Below, piece by piece: positions 1,459 through 16,857 of a stretch of DNA of 32,846 bases (position 1 is its first letter; each line of letters opens with the position of its first letter). The notes beneath the pieces are model-generated. The model saw only the letters and a program-made list of their open reading frames with translations. It was not told where the DNA came from and ran no database searches. The DNA lies in IMG/VR virus record IMGVR_UViG_2660238446_000011; one strand, written 5' to 3'. This stretch comes from a virus. Its lineage: Duplodnaviria; Heunggongvirae; Uroviricota; Caudoviricetes. A program made the position numbers and the translations under genes.

Positions 1459-2622
1459 TTACACATCATTAGTACCTTCCTTATTTTTTGACTGGGACAA
1501 ATTTGGGACCGATGGGTTCAGGATCGAGTCTATTTGCCGTGCGTGTTCGGTAAGGTGATTAGGTGCAAGGTGAGCATATCGACGAACCATTTCGATAGAC
1601 TCCCAGCCTCCCATTTCCTGTAACACTGACAACGGGACTCCGGCTTGAACCAGCCAACTTGCCCAAGTGTGTCTCAAGTCGTGAAATCTGAAATCATCAA
1701 TACCAGCCCGTCTCAGCGCTGCTTTCCAGGCTGTGTTTGCGTCATACCGCATCTTCCTTACTGTTGGCGCTTTCGTTCCGTCTGGTTTGGTACAGCTTTC
1801 CTTGTACACAAATACCCAACGGTGATGATTCCCGATTTGTTTTTTCAAAACGCGACATGCAGTATCATTCAGCGCAACGCCGATTGCGCGGTTTGATTTA
1901 CTCTCTTCCGGGTTTATCCATGCCACCCGGCGCTGCATATCTATTTGTTGCCATTCAAGGTTGATGATGTTCGAGCGTCTTAAGCCTGTTGCCAGTGCAA
2001 ATTCAACAACAGACTTTAATGGCTCCGGACATTCATCAATCAGCCTTTGTGCTTCATGGGGCTCCAGCCAGCGGATCCGTTTATTCTTTGGTTGAGGCAC
2101 TTTAATAATTGGTGCCTTATCCAGCATTTTCCATTCACGCTCTGCGGCTCTTAGTAGGGCCTTTATAAATGAAAGATGCGTAGCCTTCGTTGCAACGGAC
2201 GCTGGTTTTGGCGTGTATTCTGGAACAGGTTTCCCTTTTTTTCTGCATGCTTCTGCCCTGAGTTTCCAGTTTTCCTCATGACGCCGGTTCGTCATTTTCT
2301 GCATTGCTGAATAAATTTTTGATTCAGTAATGTCTCTTAGTTGCATTCCTGCGAAATGTTGAAGCCAGAATCCGATCCGGCTTTTGTCATCGTCCAGTGA
2401 TTTTTTATGTGCTTTCTCTTCAAGCCACCTGACACACGCTTCCTCGAACGTTATATCAGGTATTTCACCAAGTTTGCTGACCCGCCATGCTTCAGCCTTT
2501 AGCTTGTCATGGAGTTCTGTCGCCTGCCTTTTGTCCTTTGTTCCAAGAGACTGTTTAAATCTTTTACCGTTCGGCAATGTGAAACTGGCGTACCATATTT
2601 CACCTCTGCGGAAGAGTGACAT
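1459..2622 (-). CDS. int: tyrosine site-specific integrase, P22 Int-like (387 aa)
   Basis: ORF translation [22 protein letters not shown]... with C-terminal R..HxxR..Y-type region ([17 protein letters not shown]...VRRYAHL); closely resembles P22 integrase as recalled; adjacent to the thrW 3' end, the P22 attachment tRNA. Confidence 0.93.
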
Positions 2623-2849
2623 TTTCTTTCCTCTGTTATGCCATCACCCGCGCTCACCTGGACAGTATGCAGCGGAGACTGAAGAGCCGCAATGCAGGCT
2701 TGTCGTGTTGTGAGGTAAGGAGATTTATTCTTAGTGGGATCTTTGCGTGTTGCCTGAAGACGCCCTGTGCGTATCCAGTTAATGGCAGTCGGTCTGGATA
2801 TCTTGAGAAAATGACAGGCCTCATCGAGTGTGAGGCTGTATGGCTCCAT
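2499..2849 (-). CDS. xis: excisionase, P22 Xis-like (116 aa from internal start [11 protein letters not shown]...)
   Basis: ORF 2499..2933 contains [37 protein letters not shown]... resembling P22 Xis; start at Met29 of the track ORF gives the expected 116 aa and a 1-nt stop/start overlap with the upstream gene; 3' end overlaps int. Confidence 0.8.
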
Positions 2850-3154
2850 TATTTCACCTCTTGCTGTGACATTGTTGAAAAATGGATACCAGCTCGTTGC
2901 TGCCAGACGATCCAACCGAGAGTCATATCCCATTCCATGTATTCGTTATCGCCGTTTTTTGCTCTCCGACGATCTACTAAGTCACCGAAACGCTTTTCCA
3001 TGAATAATTCATAAGCTTCGCGTTCATCTGGTTCTACTTCCAGAGATAGGAGTGCGATTTCATAAGCACGGCGCTCAATATCGTCTCGCACGTCAAGACT
3101 GCTGATACGCTCTTTAATTTCTTTAATCAGTTCTTTGTCGGTAAAAGTGGTCAT
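2849..3154 (-). CDS. hypothetical early-left protein (101 aa, acidic)
   Basis: ORF in operon orientation with xis/int, tightly packed with neighbours; no family recognised. Confidence 0.5.
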   Translation of the reverse strand: MTTFTDKELIKEIKERISSLDVRDDIERRAYEIALLSLEVEPDEREAYELFMEKRFGDLVDRRRAKNGDNEYMEWDMTLGWIVWQQRAGIHFSTMSQQEVK

Positions 3155-3516
3155 TATGCTCCAGCCTCCGGTGCTTTTGGCATTACTGCCCAGTGAGTGA
3201 TATTGACGTTTTCAAGGTCCCCGACCTGAAATGTCCACTGCCATTCTCCGGTTTCTTTTTGTCCCCAGGTGTACCAGAGAGAACGCCAGCCAATTAGCCA
3301 GCCTTCTCCTTTAGCATCGAATAACAAAACACTTTCATTTGCTGGTGGCAGTTCAGTTGGCATTGGTATTACTTTGTTTTCCTGTGCTGCACATTTAGCT
3401 TCAAGCGCATCGAATTTACGCACCAGGTATTCAGCATCTGTTTCATTTACTTTCAGATCTCGCGGTACACATCTCCCACGAAGAAACCCTTCCATTTCGA
3501 AAACATTCATGCGCAT
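3154..3516 (-). CDS. hypothetical phage early protein (120 aa), possibly DUF551-like
   Basis: ORF packed with overlapping start/stop between flanking genes; Trp-rich C-terminal region (WLIGWRSLWYTWGQKETGEWQW) reminiscent of DUF551 phage proteins; weak. Confidence 0.5.
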   Translation of the reverse strand: MRMNVFEMEGFLRGRCVPRDLKVNETDAEYLVRKFDALEAKCAAQENKVIPMPTELPPANESVLLFDAKGEGWLIGWRSLWYTWGQKETGEWQWTFQVGDLENVNITHWAVMPKAPEAGA

Positions 3517-11091: not shown

Positions 11092-12087
11092 GTGACCGTG
11101 AGAGCACTACTGACCCCTGAAATTGCCCCGCGTATGGGGATCGTATTGTTCAGACCAGGTTCAGAGCTGATGCCCCTGTTTATGCAGGGGCGTGTCCTGC
11201 TGGAGCCTGAGCCGGAACGTTATTCATCTTTCGCCAGTGGTGCTGTTCCGGCGGCATCACAACCGCTGGCGGATGATCCTGCCGTTCGGGCCGTGTTCCG
11301 CAATGAGGCAGTGATCCGTCGTGCTGGTGGCGTGGAATGTCTTGAAAGCTGGTTACTTCGTGAAAAAGGCTGCCAGTGGCCTCATTCCGACTGGCACAGC
11401 GAGAACATGACCACAATGCGTCACGCGCCGGGCGCAATCTGTCTGTGCTGGCACTGCGATAACCAGCTGCGCGATCAGTTCACGGAACGGCTGGAATCAA
11501 TGGCAACGGATAACTGTGCCCGCTGGGTGTTGTCTGTCGTGCGTCGGGATCTCGGTTTTGATGATAGTCACGTTGTGACAATGCCGGAACTGTGCTGGTG
11601 GCTGGTTCGTAATGATCTGGCGGATGCCTTACCTGAAAGTGCAGCCCGTAAGGCACTGAGATTACCGAAGCCTGTTGTGCCGTCTGTCACCCGGGAGAGT
11701 GACCTTGTTCCTTCGGTTCCGGCCACCAGCATCATCCAGAATAAAGCGAAAAAGGTGCTGGCGCTGAAAGTGGATCCGGAGTCGCCGGAGTCTTTTATGT
11801 TACGCCCAAAACGTCGCCGCTGGGTTAACGAAAAGTACACGCGCTGGGTTAAGACGCAGCCGTGTGCATGTTGTGGAAAGCCTGCTGATGATCCCCACCA
11901 CCTGATAGGCCACGGTCAGGGTGGAATAGGTACAAAAGCGCATGACCTCTTCGTGCTGCCTTTGTGCAGAAAGCATCACGACGAGCTGCATGCGGATACC
12001 GTGGCATTTGAAGAGAAGTATGGCTCCCAGTTGGAGCTGATATTTCGTTTTATCGATCGCGCGCTGGCAACTGGCGTGCTGGCCTGA
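11092..12087 (+). CDS. DUF968-like phage protein with C-terminal Cys/His HNH-like motif
   Basis: C-terminus CACCGKPADDPHHLIGHGQGGIGTKAHDLFVLPLCRKHHDELH; track start is a GTG, an ATG alternative lies at 11134; nin-region position. Confidence 0.55.
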   Translation: MTVRALLTPEIAPRMGIVLFRPGSELMPLFMQGRVLLEPEPERYSSFASGAVPAASQPLADDPAVRAVFRNEAVIRRAGGVECLESWLLREKGCQWPHSDWHSENMTTMRHAPGAICLCWHCDNQLRDQFTERLESMATDNCARWVLSVVRRDLGFDDSHVVTMPELCWWLVRNDLADALPESAARKALRLPKPVVPSVTRESDLVPSVPATSIIQNKAKKVLALKVDPESPESFMLRPKRRRWVNEKYTRWVKTQPCACCGKPADDPHHLIGHGQGGIGTKAHDLFVLPLCRKHHDELHADTVAFEEKYGSQLELIFRFIDRALATGVLA

Positions 12088-12104
12088 TTTTGTGGAGAAA
12101 GTTG

Positions 12105-12467
12105 ATGCGTGATATTCAGATGGTTCTGGATCGTTGGGGTGCATGGGCGGCGAGTGATAGTTCTGGGGTAGACTATTCGCCTATAGCTGCTGGGTTTAAA
12201 GGGCTTCTTCCCTATACAAGCAAAACACGTCAGGCTTGTTCAGATAGTGATGCATTAATTATTGAAGGTTGTCTTGCTCGTCTAAAGCAAAAAAGACCTG
12301 AAGAACACTCGCTTCTTGTTGCCCATTACCTATACGGTATCTCTAAAAGAAAGCTCGCTAAAGCTCGCAAAAAGGATGAGAAAATAATACGCATTGAGAT
12401 ACAGATGGCTGAGGGATTTATAGAAGGTTGTCTAGCTATTCTAAATGTTAGCTTAGATATGGATTAA
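12105..12467 (+). CDS. Q: late gene antiterminator Q (small Q family, QuuD-like)
   Basis: MRDIQMVLDRWGAWAA...AAGFKGL...IEGCLA parallels E. coli DLP12 QuuD as recalled; position after nin genes. Confidence 0.8.
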   Translation: MRDIQMVLDRWGAWAASDSSGVDYSPIAAGFKGLLPYTSKTRQACSDSDALIIEGCLARLKQKRPEEHSLLVAHYLYGISKRKLAKARKKDEKIIRIEIQMAEGFIEGCLAILNVSLDMD

Positions 12468-12479
12468 TATCTTGGTTTG

Positions 12480-12512
12480 GATAAGCAGGTGTGCTTGCAC
12501 CTGCTTAATATT
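12480..12512. terminator. hairpin between convergent Q and membrane-protein genes (AAGCAGGTG-tgcttg-CACCTGCTT), possible bidirectional terminator
   Basis: 9-bp perfect stem seen in sequence; flanking U-runs are weak on both strands. Confidence 0.4.
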
Positions 12513-12963
12513 ATATGTGGGGTAATATCCAGTTTATTTTCCTCCAGGTACTTGCAAATGAAACTATTGATACGATCAGGGTCGAGAAACCATATAAGGT
12601 TAGGGCGAAATCAAGTCTTACAGAGGTAATGGTGATTTTTTCATTTATAAACATTGCTATCAGCGGGAAAATACATGCTAATATTAAGGTAACTCCCGTA
12701 GATAACAGGTTATGAATAATTTTAGGTAAAATCTTGTTTTGTTTTAAAGCAAAAATAATTCCATCAGTACTTGAACTTGCAGAACTGAAGATGGAAATAG
12801 CGGCCAATACAAAACCAAACAAAATGCCTGCCACCGTAGATAACACTCCGGCTGTACTTAAGATATCAGAGTGAGCCATAGGCGCTAGGTATTTCCCAAG
12901 CACCCAAGCTAACAGCCCACTGATAACTATGTTAATTAAAACTTTAATAAGCATAATCATCAT
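12511..12963 (-). CDS. small integral membrane protein, four predicted TM helices (150 aa); RexB-like topology
   Basis: Four hydrophobic segments read from the translation (IKVLINIVISGLLAWVL; GVLSTVAGILFGFVLAAISIF; LLSTGVTLILACIFPLIAMFI; FALTLYGFSTLIVSIVSF); appears AT-rich by eye; second gene of a minus-strand pair. Confidence 0.65.
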   Translation of the reverse strand: MMIMLIKVLINIVISGLLAWVLGKYLAPMAHSDILSTAGVLSTVAGILFGFVLAAISIFSSASSSTDGIIFALKQNKILPKIIHNLLSTGVTLILACIFPLIAMFINEKITITSVRLDFALTLYGFSTLIVSIVSFASTWRKINWILPHI

Positions 12964-12977
12964 CCTTAAAAATAAGA

Positions 12978-13910
12978 TCAGATTTCATATTGCTTTAAAT
13001 ACTGACCATGTTCAATTTTAGCACTGATCAAGGCAGTACGCACATCTGTTTCTTTTGCGTAGCCATCTTTTGTGTTAATGTTTTTTTCACTGATCAGAAC
13101 TTGATTGAGAAGACTCCTTGAATGAGTATTTTTAGGTTCAGTGACATTAGCTTTACGTAATAAGTGAGGAACTTTTTCTATTAATTCCTTTATTCCACTT
13201 TTTACTTCATCACTGAGATAACCACGGATTAATTTACGTTGCGATGCTCTACCTCTAAGTGATAGTTTTAAATGCGAACCGCCCATCCCAGCCATCATTT
13301 CAATCATACTTTTGGAAAATGAATTCGAAAGGTCATAATCCGTTGCGCTAAAATTACGTGGAGCGGCGAGTGTAATTTCACAGCTACGTAAAGTGCTTCC
13401 TGTTTCAAGTAGTTCTTTTACACTTTCTTTTTTCCAAATTGCCTCAAACGCTACAGGTTTGTTTTCTTCAGAAAAATTGAATAAAAGAAATGCTAAATCG
13501 GAAACTTTAGGTCCTAAATGATTTTGAGATAAAACAAGAATGTCTTTCTTATAGTAGTAAATAAAATAAGTGCGTTCGACTATATATTTTTTATCATCTA
13601 ACGGAATATTGTGCTCATCCCAATTTTCATCACCAATATAAGGTAAGTGGAAACCATCACGAGAGCATGATAGATAACCAAAATAGAACTCCGCCTGTGC
13701 GTCTTTTTCTAAGAATACAATCTTTAATTTTTTCTTATCAAACTCAGCGGTATAAGAATTTTGCGAAGGTGTAACAATGGTTGTATACATGTTGTCAAAT
13801 GCAAGTTGTGCATTTGATGTAGTTGACTTCGTTCCTGAGGAGCTTTGGAAGAAACCGATACGCATTTTTTTTTGTTTAGTTAGTGGCGCGGAAGTGGCTG
13901 TAGTAGTCAT
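12978..13910 (-). CDS. hypothetical soluble protein (310 aa), first gene of a two-gene cargo operon; RexA-like by size and order only
   Basis: ORF with AAGGG 9 nt upstream of the ATG; 14-nt gap to the downstream membrane gene; Ser/Thr-rich N-terminus; no recognised motif. Confidence 0.6.
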   Translation of the reverse strand: MTTTATSAPLTKQKKMRIGFFQSSSGTKSTTSNAQLAFDNMYTTIVTPSQNSYTAEFDKKKLKIVFLEKDAQAEFYFGYLSCSRDGFHLPYIGDENWDEHNIPLDDKKYIVERTYFIYYYKKDILVLSQNHLGPKVSDLAFLLFNFSEENKPVAFEAIWKKESVKELLETGSTLRSCEITLAAPRNFSATDYDLSNSFSKSMIEMMAGMGGSHLKLSLRGRASQRKLIRGYLSDEVKSGIKELIEKVPHLLRKANVTEPKNTHSRSLLNQVLISEKNINTKDGYAKETDVRTALISAKIEHGQYLKQYEI

Positions 13911-14040
13911 TAAAATTACCCTTTATTATCCTTTTGAATCAATGGGTTGTGATTTGTTAATGATCCTAGGTTCGTTGCATATGCATAATCTATCAAAAAA
14001 AACTTACGCGGTCCGCATATTCTCGTTTACTGTGTTAAGA

Positions 14041-14090
14041 GTGGTTACTTCGCCACACAGCTTAAACCCGCCGTCGAGCGGTTTTTTTGT
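14041..14090 (+). promoter_or_regulatory. putative late leader (PR' / qut region) ending in a tR'-like intrinsic terminator
   Basis: GTGGTTACTTCGCC resembles the lambda 6S-RNA segment TTGGTCACTTCGAC as recalled; hairpin CCGCcgtcgaGCGG followed by TTTTTTT at about 14067..14088. Confidence 0.4.
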
Positions 14091-14210
14091 ACCTGTAAAC
14101 CTGGTGCAGTACAGTAAACACGCTGGTGGTCGTGAATACTGACTTTTTATCTTGCTGGCTTTTTAGACAAGAGTTATTGGTATGTCATGTTAACCAGAAG
14201 GGAAAAAGAC

Positions 14211-14414
14211 ATGCTAAAACAGCAAGATATGACAGAAACCGCCGCCGCAGTCCTTCATTTCTTACCTGCTGACAAGTGGGTAACGCCACGCATGATGACG
14301 AGAACTACCGGAGTAAGCGAAGCCCGGTGCCAGTTAATACTGACTCAGTTAGTTCTGGCGGGTCTGGCGAAGGATAACGGCGGGTACGGGAATAAATTCA
14401 GACGCTGCCAGTAA
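14211..14414 (+). CDS. small hypothetical protein (67 aa from MLKQQDM), possible winged-helix
   Basis: AGGGAAAAAG purine-rich stretch before the ATG at 14211; track ORF begins further upstream at 14187. Confidence 0.45.
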   Translation: MLKQQDMTETAAAVLHFLPADKWVTPRMMTRTTGVSEARCQLILTQLVLAGLAKDNGGYGNKFRRCQ

Positions 14415-14564
14415 TGGCGGTTTCCTGCTGTGAAAATGGGCGGCTGGTGGGTGTTGGTAGCACCTGCCAGCCATTCGCTCATGCTTACTGGTCACAAGCG
14501 AACCACGGCCCACTGCTTTAGCGCAAAAGCAGAGTGAGCCTACCAGAGTTACGCTTACTGATCC

Positions 14565-15617
14565 ATGAAAAATACTGTAAAAATAAACAGTGTTGATTTA
14601 ATCAACGCTGATTGCCTGCATTTTATTCAGTCCCTGCCTGATGATTCCATTGACCTGATTGTTACCGATCCGCCGTACTTCAAGGTGAAACCCAACGGCT
14701 GGGACAATCAGTGGAAAGGGGACGAAGATTACCTTAAGTGGCTGGACCACTGTCTGGCCCAGTTCTGGCGGGTGTTAAAACCTGCCGGAAGCCTTTACCT
14801 GTTCTGTGGGCATCGCCTGGCATCTGATATTGAGATCATGATGCGTGAACGTTTCAACGTGCTTAACCATATCATCTGGGCGAAGCCGTCCGGACGTTGG
14901 AATGGGTGTAATAAAGAAAGTCTGCGTGCATATTTTCCTGCCACAGAGCGCGTTCTGTTTGCTGAACATTACCAGGGGCCATATCGCGGCAAAAGTGACG
15001 GCTATGCGGCAAAAGAAAGGGAACTCAAACAGCACATAATGGCACCGCTGATTTCGTATTTCAGGGATGCTCGTGCCGAACTGGGTATAACGGCAAAACA
15101 AATTGCCGAAGCCACAGGTAAGAAAAATATGGTTTCCCACTGGTTTGGTGCCAGTCAGTGGCAGTTGCCGAATGAGGCTGACTATCGGAAGTTACAGGCA
15201 CTGTTTTCCCGTATAGCGGCAGAGAAGTTTCAGGAACAACAACTGGAACAACCACACCACCAGCTGGTGGCATCTTATGATTCACTGAATCGCAAATATT
15301 CTGAATTGCTGGATGAGTTTAAATCTCTCCGGCGCTATTTCTCCGTATCAGTCTCCGTGCCTTATACCGATGTCTGGATGCATAAACCCGTTCAGTTCTA
15401 CCCGGGTAAACATCCGTGTGAGAAACCGGCGGATATGCTCAGGCAAATAATCAATGCCAGTAGTCGACCTGGTGATCTGGTTGCTGATTTTTTTATGGGC
15501 TCCGGTTCCACAATAAAAGCAGCAATGGCGTTGGGGCGTCGGGCCTTAGGTGTTGAGCTTGAGTCAGAGCGGTTTAACCAGACAGTGAAAGAGATAAACG
15601 AGCTGGTGGGGAAATAA
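14565..15617 (+). CDS. DNA methyltransferase (N6-adenine or N4-cytosine), DPPY motif, no partner endonuclease in the window
   Basis: [11 protein letters not shown] catalytic motif near the N-terminus and a C-terminal AdoMet-type region ([13 protein letters not shown]) indicate a beta-class amino-MTase. Confidence 0.8.
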
Positions 15618-15684
15618 TCTGGTGGCCACGTCAGGTGGCCTTTTTATTTCCATTACACAGCACCCGCATCTGCGAGGTGGGGTT

Positions 15685-15900
15685 ATGAAATCCATGGATA
15701 AGTTAACAACGGGTGTCGCCTATGGCACCTCAGCAGGTAGTGCCGGGTACTGGTTTTTACAGTTGCTCGATAAAGTCACGCCCTCACAGTGGGCGGCATT
15801 AGGTGTGCTGGGTAGTCTGGTATTTGGCTTGCTGACGTATCTGACAAACCTTTATTTCAAGATTAAAGAAGACAAGCGTAAGGCGGCACGGGGAGAGTAA
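15685..15900 (+). CDS. class II holin (phage 21 S21 pinholin-like) with dual-start MKSM motif
   Basis: [62 protein letters not shown] nearly matches S21 as recalled; track ORF starts further upstream at 15622. Confidence 0.85.
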
Positions 15901-15904
15901 TTCA

Positions 15905-16255
15905 ATGACTCAAAACTATGAACTGATTGTGAAAGGGATCCGCAATTTTGAGAATAAAGTTACGGTAACTTTAGCGTTACGGGACAAAAAACGCTTTGCC
16001 GGTGAAATTTTTGACCTGGACATCTCGCTGGACCGTGTTGAAGGTGCCGCGCTGGAGTTTTATGAGGCAGCAGCCAGAAGGAGCATCAGACAGGTCTTCC
16101 TGGATGTTGCTGCCGGGTTATGTGAAGGGGATGAGCAGTCGCCGGAAAAGCGCCCCGTAATTTTAGAGGCGCAGAATGTATGGATAACCTACAAAGGAAA
16201 GCTACCGGGAAGAATTACTGGTTCTCTGAAGACTCCTCCGGAATCACAACCTTAA
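15905..16255 (+). CDS. hypothetical protein (116 aa) between holin and endolysin
   Basis: ORF packed inside the lysis cassette; no family recognised. Confidence 0.5.
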   Translation: MTQNYELIVKGIRNFENKVTVTLALRDKKRFAGEIFDLDISLDRVEGAALEFYEAAARRSIRQVFLDVAAGLCEGDEQSPEKRPVILEAQNVWITYKGKLPGRITGSLKTPPESQP

Positions 16256-16318
16256 GTCACTGACCGGAACAGATAAACCTGTCCGTGGGCAGAAACCGAT
16301 AAATCCTGATAAATATCC

Positions 16319-16852
16319 ATGAACGCAAAAATCAGATACGGCCTGTCGGCTGCCGTTCTGGCACTGATTGCCGTCGGTGCGCCCGCGCCTGATATTCTCG
16401 ACCAGTTTCTGGATGAAAAAGAAGGTAACCACACAACGGCATACCGCGATGGGTCCGGCATCTGGACCATCTGTCGGGGTGCCACGATGGTGGATGGAAA
16501 ACCCGTTTTTCCCGGTATGAAACTGTCGAAGGAAAAATGCGACCAGGTCAACGCCATTGAGCGTGATAAGGCGCTGACATGGGTGGAGCGCAATATTAAA
16601 GTACCACTGACTGAACCACAGAAAGCGGGTATCGCCTCATTTTGTCCCTATAACATTGGCCCAGGTAAGTGTTTTCCGTCGACATTTTATAAGCGGCTGA
16701 ATGCTGGTGATCGAAAAGGCGCCTGCGAGGCGATTCGCTGGTGGATTAAGGATGGTGGCAGAGACTGCCGTATTCGTTCCAATAGCTGCTTTGGGCAAGT
16801 TTCGCGTCGGGACCAAGAAAGTGTGCTGGCGTGCTGGGGGATAGACCAGTGA
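16319..16852 (+). CDS. SAR endolysin (T4-lysozyme-type muramidase with N-terminal signal-anchor-release domain)
   Basis: N-terminal Gly/Ala-rich weakly hydrophobic segment ([16 protein letters not shown]) followed by an E...D...T catalytic region ([20 protein letters not shown]); pairs with a pinholin as in phage 21. Confidence 0.85.
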
Positions 16853-16857
16853 ATAAC

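Follow-up and report, generated by a model that had tools for sequence, protein, structure and literature searches.

Predicted late promoter separated from its Q antiterminator gene by antisense cargo in a lambdoid prophage of Escherichia coli

Does the late promoter PR' of a lambdoid phage have to lie directly after the gene for the Q antiterminator that acts on it? The question is raised by IMG/VR virus record IMGVR_UViG_2660238446_000011, a stretch of 32,846 nucleotides (nt), called the window in what follows, which is a lambdoid prophage of Escherichia coli integrated beside proA and tRNA-Thr. In this prophage the Q gene is followed by two genes on the opposite strand, and a promoter-like segment with an intrinsic terminator comes only after them. 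A first-pass annotation had described the two genes as cargo inserted between Q and its site of action (qut). The layout given there could be reproduced in full: Q, the minus-strand pair in 12511-13910, a sequence block and terminator at 14033-14088, and a gap of about 1.6 kb.

We conclude with considerable confidence that PR' is located beyond the cargo, at approximately 13995-14088, together with the Q-loading site and tR', its terminator, and thus far from Q at 12105-12467. From the Q stop codon to the predicted transcription start at 14040 there are 1572 nt and two antisense genes, so that PR' does not follow immediately after Q. We place the cargo between Q and PR' because the block downstream of the cargo is homologous to PR' of phage 933W and is linked to Q in relatives. 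The split layout is real, and it is not new: it is already present in the K-12 prophage DLP12, in PA-2 and in cdtI. It matters for the location of late promoters and of short terminated RNAs such as StxS. The features of the locus are collected in Table 1.

Table 1. Features between the Q gene and the first late genes, in window coordinates; signed positions are relative to the predicted PR' start
Feature	Position	Strand	Remark
Q antiterminator gene, 120 amino acids	12105-12467	+	PF06530, Q21/Q933W family
Strong hairpin where the Q gene and the cargo operon converge	12482-12507		11-bp stem
Cargo gene 2, 150 amino acids, four membrane segments	12511-12963	-	RexB-like size and topology; phrog_8552
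Cargo gene 1, 310-amino-acid DUF6731 protein, RexA-like fold	12978-13910	-	
Cargo-specific upstream region	13911-13994	-	Presumed cassette promoter
A8 tract at -45 to -38, placed like a UP-element proximal subsite	13995-14002	+	A-rich tract conserved here
Weak -35-like hexamer TTACGC, 18-nt spacer	14004-14009	+	Aligns with TTTACG of 933W and DLP12
Palindrome GCGGTCCGC, candidate Q-binding element	14008-14016		-32 to -24; clade-specific, symmetric
Predicted -10 hexamer TACTGT of PR'	14028-14033	+	Aligns with TATCAT, the annotated 933W pR' -10
Predicted PR' start (A)	14040	+	Homology to the mapped start of 933W/Sp5
Near-invariant discriminator and initial transcribed block GTTAAGAGTGGTTACTTCGCCACACAGCTTAAA	14034-14066	+	Conserved; single copy in the window
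tR'-like intrinsic terminator, hairpin and T7	14067-14088	+	+28 to +49; homologous hairpins in DLP12 and 933W
First late genes	14187-16854	+	75-amino-acid open reading frame, DNA methylase, holin, endolysin, spanin

Homology of the predicted late promoter

The Q open reading frame (ORF) matches the Pfam profile Phage_antitermQ (PF06530) from end to end (175.9 bits, cut-off 26; E = 3.2e-52; profile positions 1-118 of 118). On the basis of this full-length match it is assigned to the Q21/Q933W family of antiterminators, the name given to PF06530 in an earlier study (bioRxiv 10.1101/651190). The protein is 87.5% identical to Q of phage cdtI, 74% identical to Q of Stx2_EH1846 and 50% identical to QuuD of K-12, and has only distant similarity to Q21 (PDB 6p18; E = 4e-4).

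Window positions 14028-14088 are homologous to the segment of 933W that is annotated as pR', qut and first hairpin, and they also align with a segment of K-12 DLP12 that lies 120 bp upstream of essD. In 933W, pR' is annotated as TTTACG-16-TATCAT (the number gives the spacer), followed directly by GATAAGAGTGGTTACATTGCC, which carries the qut annotation, and then by the hairpin; the whole is the homologue of window 14004-14088. The qut annotation falls in ACATTGCC, homologous to the block of the window, and a consensus scan picks TTTACG-16-TATCAT in 933W. In the 933W-type phages Sakai Sp5 and Sp15, the PR' start was placed 258 nt upstream of the 3' end of tR' by differential RNA sequencing (dRNA-seq) and Term-seq (PMC7547250). 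Counted back from the T-run at 753-758 of our 933W locus (L129), 258 nt leads to an A at 501, 7 nt past TATCAT, and the homologous base in the window is the predicted start.

The Q families of 933W (or Sakai Sp5, with Q933W, pR', the StxS RNA and tR') and of the window are the same, and the -10, start region, block and first hairpin are homologous. The two differ in that PR' of 933W lies 22 nt after Q with no cargo between, and in that its additional genes (tRNAs and stx) lie downstream of PR' on the plus strand; its terminated RNA is 258 nt long. The 933W hairpin that is homologous to tR' of the window lies at +24 to +52 (524-552 of L129), and the abundant Sakai RNA is still 258 nt long; the first hairpin may be a leaky terminator in at least some members of the family. 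Phage 21 provides the structural paradigm for this Pfam family. Like the window as we read it, it has a Q-binding element between the -35 and the -10 and a compact leader, with its terminator at +3 to +50; unlike the window, it has a direct-repeat element (ATTGAGCA / AATGAGCA), the consensus hexamer TTGACA as its -35, a pause element TAAGCT at +2 to +7, a Q of 162 amino acids, and PR' adjacent to Q.

The resemblance to lambda with which the first-pass annotation had supported its claim does not survive. That annotation compared GTGGTTACTTCGCC (14041-14054, within the 29-nt core of the block) with the lambda string TTGGTCACTTCGAC, and the 11 of 14 matches between them were reached by 103 of 300 shuffles, which is chance level. 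The lambda string is genuine (lambda 44657-44670) but it lies at +71 to +84 of the 6S RNA, outside qut. Nor is there support for homology to the 6S leader: a search of 11900-14700 against Rfam gave no match at E ≤ 1, and the PF06530 Q proteins are of another family than lambda Q. A second short match can be noted, between TGGTTACTTCGC (window 14042-14053) and GGGTTAATTCGC (lambda 44594-44605, L008 794-805), the latter in the initial transcribed region of lambda PR' with its +16/+17 pause. It has 10 of 12 positions identical at an offset of 4 nt from the starts, and is statistically no better than the first by the shuffle test.

Linkage of Q, block and palindrome across relatives

We then surveyed the linkage of Q and the block in other genomes. 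Scanning IMG/VR for GTTAAGAGTGGTTACTT gave 120 loci, of which 98 have enough upstream sequence to be informative. A PF06530 Q gene is found upstream and on the same strand in all 98, at a distance of 41-2886 nt. The one locus that has ample upstream sequence and no Q differs right past the seed, and looks like a chance match. We distinguish 44 classes of interval from Q to the block; two of these are empty, and the other 42 hold mostly minus-strand ORFs, with few exceptions. The two empty classes comprise nine of the 98 loci. Adjacency of Q and PR' is thus not obligatory, and for PF06530 Q it is the minority state in this sample. The cargo in the gaps has a G+C content of 31-42%, compared to 50% for the window. 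In the relatives that have no cargo, the block lies approximately 40 nt and the palindrome 12 nt past the Q stop codon; in Stx2_EH1846, for example, the block comes about 40 nt after the Q stop with nothing between. The proposal that the cargo lies between Q and its site of action is therefore supported by the homology to 933W, by the linkage to Q in every informative locus and by the relatives free of cargo.

The block itself is highly distinctive. A 29-mer at 14033-14061, TGTTAAGAGTGGTTACTTCGCCACACAGC, occurs once in the window with zero occurrences expected by chance, and the block is conserved between Q clades whose proteins are only about 50% identical to each other. SfV and Ayreon, which have an unrelated Q of 250 amino acids, share the same terminator and downstream region, and have a different promoter segment (TTGCAT-17-TAAGAT, then AACGAT). 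The block therefore goes with the type of Q. Phages with the 250-amino-acid Q also show another solution to the placing of extra genes: a plus-strand lipoprotein moron (Ayreon, L002 2450-3170) lies downstream of PR' and tR', with the terminator repeated at its flank.

The Q proteins form nine clusters at an identity of at least 80%, and each Q clade has its own palindrome at approximately -32 to -24, followed by an A/T tract. The palindrome is GCGGTCCGC in the window clade and in EH1846, GCGTACGC in Q cluster 2, GGAATTCC in the phiP27 type, TGTTATAACA in Q cluster 4, TTTACGTACGTAAA with QuuD, TTTACGATCGTAAA in 933W and ATTCGTTACGAAT in Q cluster 8. Palindrome type and Q clade are in complete linkage whatever the cargo, while the block and the terminator downstream of the palindrome are shuffled among clades. 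In an alignment of 20 variants the symmetry involves three position pairs, with 95% of cells complementary and changes on both sides in all three pairs. Covariation scores 0.572, compared to 0.165 in shuffled alignments; none of 500 shuffles reaches this value, and slid controls score far lower. The position of the palindrome matches that of the Q21 and lambda Q binding elements. Position, clade linkage and symmetry together suggest that the palindrome is likely to be the Q-binding element. The linkage of Q allele and palindrome allele across unrelated inserts thus points to a directly testable Q-binding site.

The same organisation can be recognised in well-known prophages. DLP12 (quuD-nmpC-essD), PA-2 (lc porin) and 434B resemble the window in having a PF06530 Q, minus-strand cargo, the block (TGTTAAGAGTGGTTACTTCGtCACACAGCTTAAA) with its terminator, and a holin gene. 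DLP12 differs from the window in its cargo, which is a porin gene (interrupted by IS5 in K-12), in its Q (QuuD, half of whose residues are identical), in its palindrome (TTTACGTACGTAAA), in a 16-nt spacer, and in a late region that has no methylase. Phage cdtI, with orf52 (Q)-orf53-orf54-orf55, is closer: it has a homologous antisense pair, and its sequence is identical to that of the window from the block onwards, although its cargo has diverged from that of the window beyond detection by megablast.

Elements of the promoter and alternative readings

Several elements can be assigned within the promoter segment (Table 1). The A-rich tract at -45 to -38 is retained in nearly all relatives irrespective of cargo, and from its placing the A8 tract of the window could act as a UP element. 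The -35-like hexamer TTACGC has two of six consensus matches, and its spacer is 18 nt long compared to 16 nt in 933W and DLP12. In the -10 hexamer T-12, A-11 and T-7 are retained in nearly all of 66 distinct variants and the middle bases differ; this form of conservation, TAnnnT with variable middle bases, extends over all clades and is the pattern expected of a -10 element. Within the initial transcribed block, TACTTC at 14046-14051 (+7 to +12) is a candidate sigma-dependent pause element. An intrinsic terminator is present between the predicted promoter and the lysis genes. The late genes that follow have Pfam matches to N6_N4_Mtase, Phage_holin_2_1 and Phage_lysozyme, and PGAP names among them essD, rrrD and rzpD.

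A number of observations weigh against this assignment. The promoter TTACGC-18-TACTGT is weak, with about 5 of 12 consensus matches. The evidence for a sigma-70 promoter here points both ways: the conserved TAnnnT hexamer is homologous to the -10 of 933W pR', but a promoter scan raised no flag at the predicted PR' of the window. TACTTC ends in C where the key T is expected, and TACATT of 933W is closer to the pause consensus. The stem of tR' is shorter than its counterparts in DLP12 and 933W, and shuffled sequences fold as well as the 53-nt RNA (z = -1.19). The homologous first hairpin of 933W is evidently passed by the polymerase, because termination of the 258-nt RNA occurs further downstream. 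The binding element of Q21 is a direct repeat, so that this precedent lends no support to binding at a palindrome. Finally, the split cassette of the window is a prediction read from sequence.

The length of the 933W RNA also bears on a different register for the same promoter. Here CATATT (14016-14021) would be the -10, the start would lie near 14028, TACTGT would be the sigma-dependent pause element at +1 to +6, comparable to lambda and phage 21, and the palindrome would lie just upstream of the -10; the cargo would still separate Q from PR'. This register predicts a 933W start about 11 nt further upstream and an RNA of about 269 nt, against the 258 nt measured (PMC7547250), and the consensus scan of 933W, which picks TTTACG-16-TATCAT, also goes against it. 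Some clades have CAAATT or CATTTT at the position of CATATT, as the register would allow, but many variants have CAAAAAG or CAAAAAA there, without the T at the last position, and there is no -35-like hexamer 17 nt upstream of CATATT. It does agree with the distance from the end of the palindrome to TAnnnT, which at 11-12 nt is near the spacing of element and pause in phage 21 (-27 to -12, then +2 to +7), and the conservation of TAnnnT suits a pause element as well as a -10. On balance we consider the CATATT register unlikely.

It is more improbable still that the block is a mosaic joint, or a terminator with no Q-dependent function, with Q possibly vestigial and the lysis genes transcribed from another promoter, for example an RpoE-dependent one. 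The block and terminator do recombine freely with different downstream segments, and the promoter of the window is weak by consensus. DLP12 is defective, and its lysis cassette has been reported to respond to RpoE and Hha besides Q (PMC7918800). However, the Q reading frame of the window is intact and full length, and the linkage of Q clade and palindrome type across variable cargo argues for ongoing selection on the pair. Moreover, functional phages have the same arrangement, and the lysis and morphogenesis modules of the prophage are complete.

The textbook layout, with PR' and qut directly after Q, a late transcript running 1.5 kb antisense through the cargo, and 14033-14088 no more than distal leader and tR', agrees with the adjacency that is the rule in lambda, 21, 82 and 933W and with the presence of a hairpin with a partly U-rich tail after Q, but can practically be dismissed, because directly 3' of Q (12468-12520), where a functional PR'/qut would, according to the first-pass annotation, have refuted its claim, neither the block search nor the promoter scan found a copy of the block or a promoter-like site, the sequence after the Q stop is cargo-specific and is not the same in cdtI, although the two Q proteins are nearly identical, the counterpart of the 933W promoter and start is at 14028-14040 and not after Q, and the clade-specific palindrome is downstream of the cargo in every locus.

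With PR' placed beyond the cargo, the content of the stretch after Q can be described. Positions 12468-12510 hold a strong hairpin only, which folds with -15.5 kcal/mol on the minus strand (z = -5.55), and with -17.4 kcal/mol for the containing 53-nt stretch of the plus strand. In cdtI the sequence diverges from that of the window right after the Q stop codon despite the close similarity of the two Q proteins, and we therefore count the post-Q stretch as part of the cargo. At the same place cdtI has another hairpin, which is a canonical bidirectional terminator. The hairpin of the window marks the 3' end of the cargo cassette and may also terminate Q transcripts.

The split layout is found in viable phages, namely cdtI and the plaque-forming 434B, which carries the DLP12 segment Q-nmpC::IS5-block-lysis (PMC9119081). 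The lysis cassette of DLP12 itself has been reported to be under the control of Q, according to work cited in PMC7918800. We propose that in the lysogen PR' of the window would fire and RNA polymerase would terminate at about +49. On induction, Q would be produced from the early transcript, diffuse to PR' and bind the clade-specific palindrome. It would then be loaded onto polymerase during a pause within the conserved block of the initial transcribed region, and the modified polymerase would pass tR' into the methylase, lysis and structural genes.

Some further observations concern the same segment. The octamer GTTAAGAG (14034-14041, the predicted discriminator and start) is near-invariant in Q clades that are only about 50% identical. 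Within it, TAAGAG resembles the phage 21 pause element TAAGCT; a role for TAAGAG as pause element in the lambda/21 register, with an A/T-rich -10 upstream, is disfavoured by the 258-nt length of StxS. A small hairpin, GUGGU-UACUUC-GCCAC, is possible at the 5' end of the predicted late RNA (first 17 nt, 14041-14056), as it is in 933W and DLP12. A candidate minus-strand terminator at 14019-13997 was rejected as a conserved terminator: it consists of the palindrome and A-tract read on the other strand, has only weak folding (z = -0.65), and in relatives has no terminator geometry.

The cargo and its site of insertion

The cassette between Q and PR' is self-contained and approximately 1.5 kb long, lies on the minus strand, and has a G+C content of 35%, well below that of the window. 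The region upstream of it (13911-13994) is common only to loci with the same cargo (L084) and contains a weak promoter-like site at 13953-13925; the cassette presumably has its own promoter here. Cargo gene 1 encodes a RexA-fold protein. Its partner is adjacent and downstream, is in the size class of about 145 amino acids and has four membrane segments, as expected of a RexB-like protein: the hydrophobic segments are at 1-19, 40-58, 86-104 and 117-135, compared to 8-26, 42-60, 84-102 and 116-134 in lambda RexB. The pair also agrees with rexA-rexB in its order and in an intergenic gap of 14 nt. The cassette is most likely a Rex-type exclusion or abortive-infection module that would be expressed in the lysogen, to judge from fold and topology. 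It would extend Rex-like systems to DUF6731, a family that has no assigned function.

At the level of sequence the pair has no detectable similarity to Rex. Neither protein matched the Pfam families RexA (PF15969) and RexB (PF15968) even at E ≤ 10, HHalign gave a probability of 0.5% for a relationship to Rex, BLASTP against RexB gave nothing, and gene 2 had no match in Pfam or PADLOC. The link to Rex comes from fold and topology only, which counts against it. The two systems also differ in location: lambda RexA and RexB lie beside cI in the immunity region, and the pair of the window lies between Q and PR'. Two further assignments were considered and rejected. As a known defence system the cargo had no PADLOC match and only a sub-threshold chance match in NCBIfam, and a relationship to KwaB or to other proteins carried in the gap was negative by HHalign. 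Homologues of the cargo occupy the same Q-to-PR' site in cdtI, with amino acid identities of 62% (gene 1) and 54% (gene 2, orf53). The pair is also found at the Q-to-PR' site in Yersinia prophages, and in Klebsiella at a different prophage moron site. The DUF6731 cargo family is confined to Enterobacterales (64 clusters).

Across the survey, unrelated cargo is found between conserved flanks, with at least 40 different cassettes (loci L009-L128). The occupants include defence systems, namely a complete Kiwa (KwaA and KwaB), PDC-S20, PDC-M68A, PDC-M53A and PDC-S42. Others are an NYN protein, an NA37-like protein with a membrane partner, lipoproteins and the nmpC/lc porin. Insertions recur at the junction between Q and PR', which is a hot spot because both the Q gene and the late transcription unit stay uninterrupted by cargo at this position. 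Within the library that we searched, we found no account of the gap in such terms. As a source of defence genes it is productive. Several unannotated pairs in it consist of a soluble protein of about 270-345 amino acids and a membrane protein of about 160-190 amino acids, and these may be further Rex- or Kiwa-like systems. One of the few occupants on the same strand as Q is that of phiP27, where the gap (L006 3476-4705) holds a plus-strand GIY-YIG nuclease gene, which may be a homing-type element.

A defence gene antisense to phage transcription near the late region is also known from the 'noncontiguous operon' of phi80, with taiEcA, and lytic transcription may silence an antisense defence gene of this kind (PMC11364771). 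The two arrangements differ in that taiEcA is inside the late operon downstream of PR', whereas PR' of the window comes after the cargo, which would encounter no phage transcription other than early read-through. The antisense transcripts of the cassette might in turn damp leaky expression of Q in the lysogen. In lambda and phage 21 the antisense promoter paQ has this effect.

Taken together, these results allow a broader reading, which we put forward tentatively and judge to fall a little short of probable. In lambdoid prophages whose Q is of the QuuD/Q933W type, the site from the Q stop to the Q-binding element of PR' would be a hot spot dedicated to defence cassettes that are antisense and expressed in the lysogen; the DUF6731 protein and its four-segment partner would be an unrecognised, divergent branch of RexAB-type systems; and the clade palindrome would mean that Q may bind as symmetric dimers, unlike Q21. 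The gap as a defence hot spot, the linkage of the palindrome to the Q clade and the RexA-fold cargo seem to be the less appreciated points of this locus.

Two features of the prophage as a whole can be added. The integrase gene adjoins tRNA-Thr downstream of proBA (2146-3354), which makes this the likely attachment site, and the immunity region is e14-like (ymfK, ymfT, ymfL).

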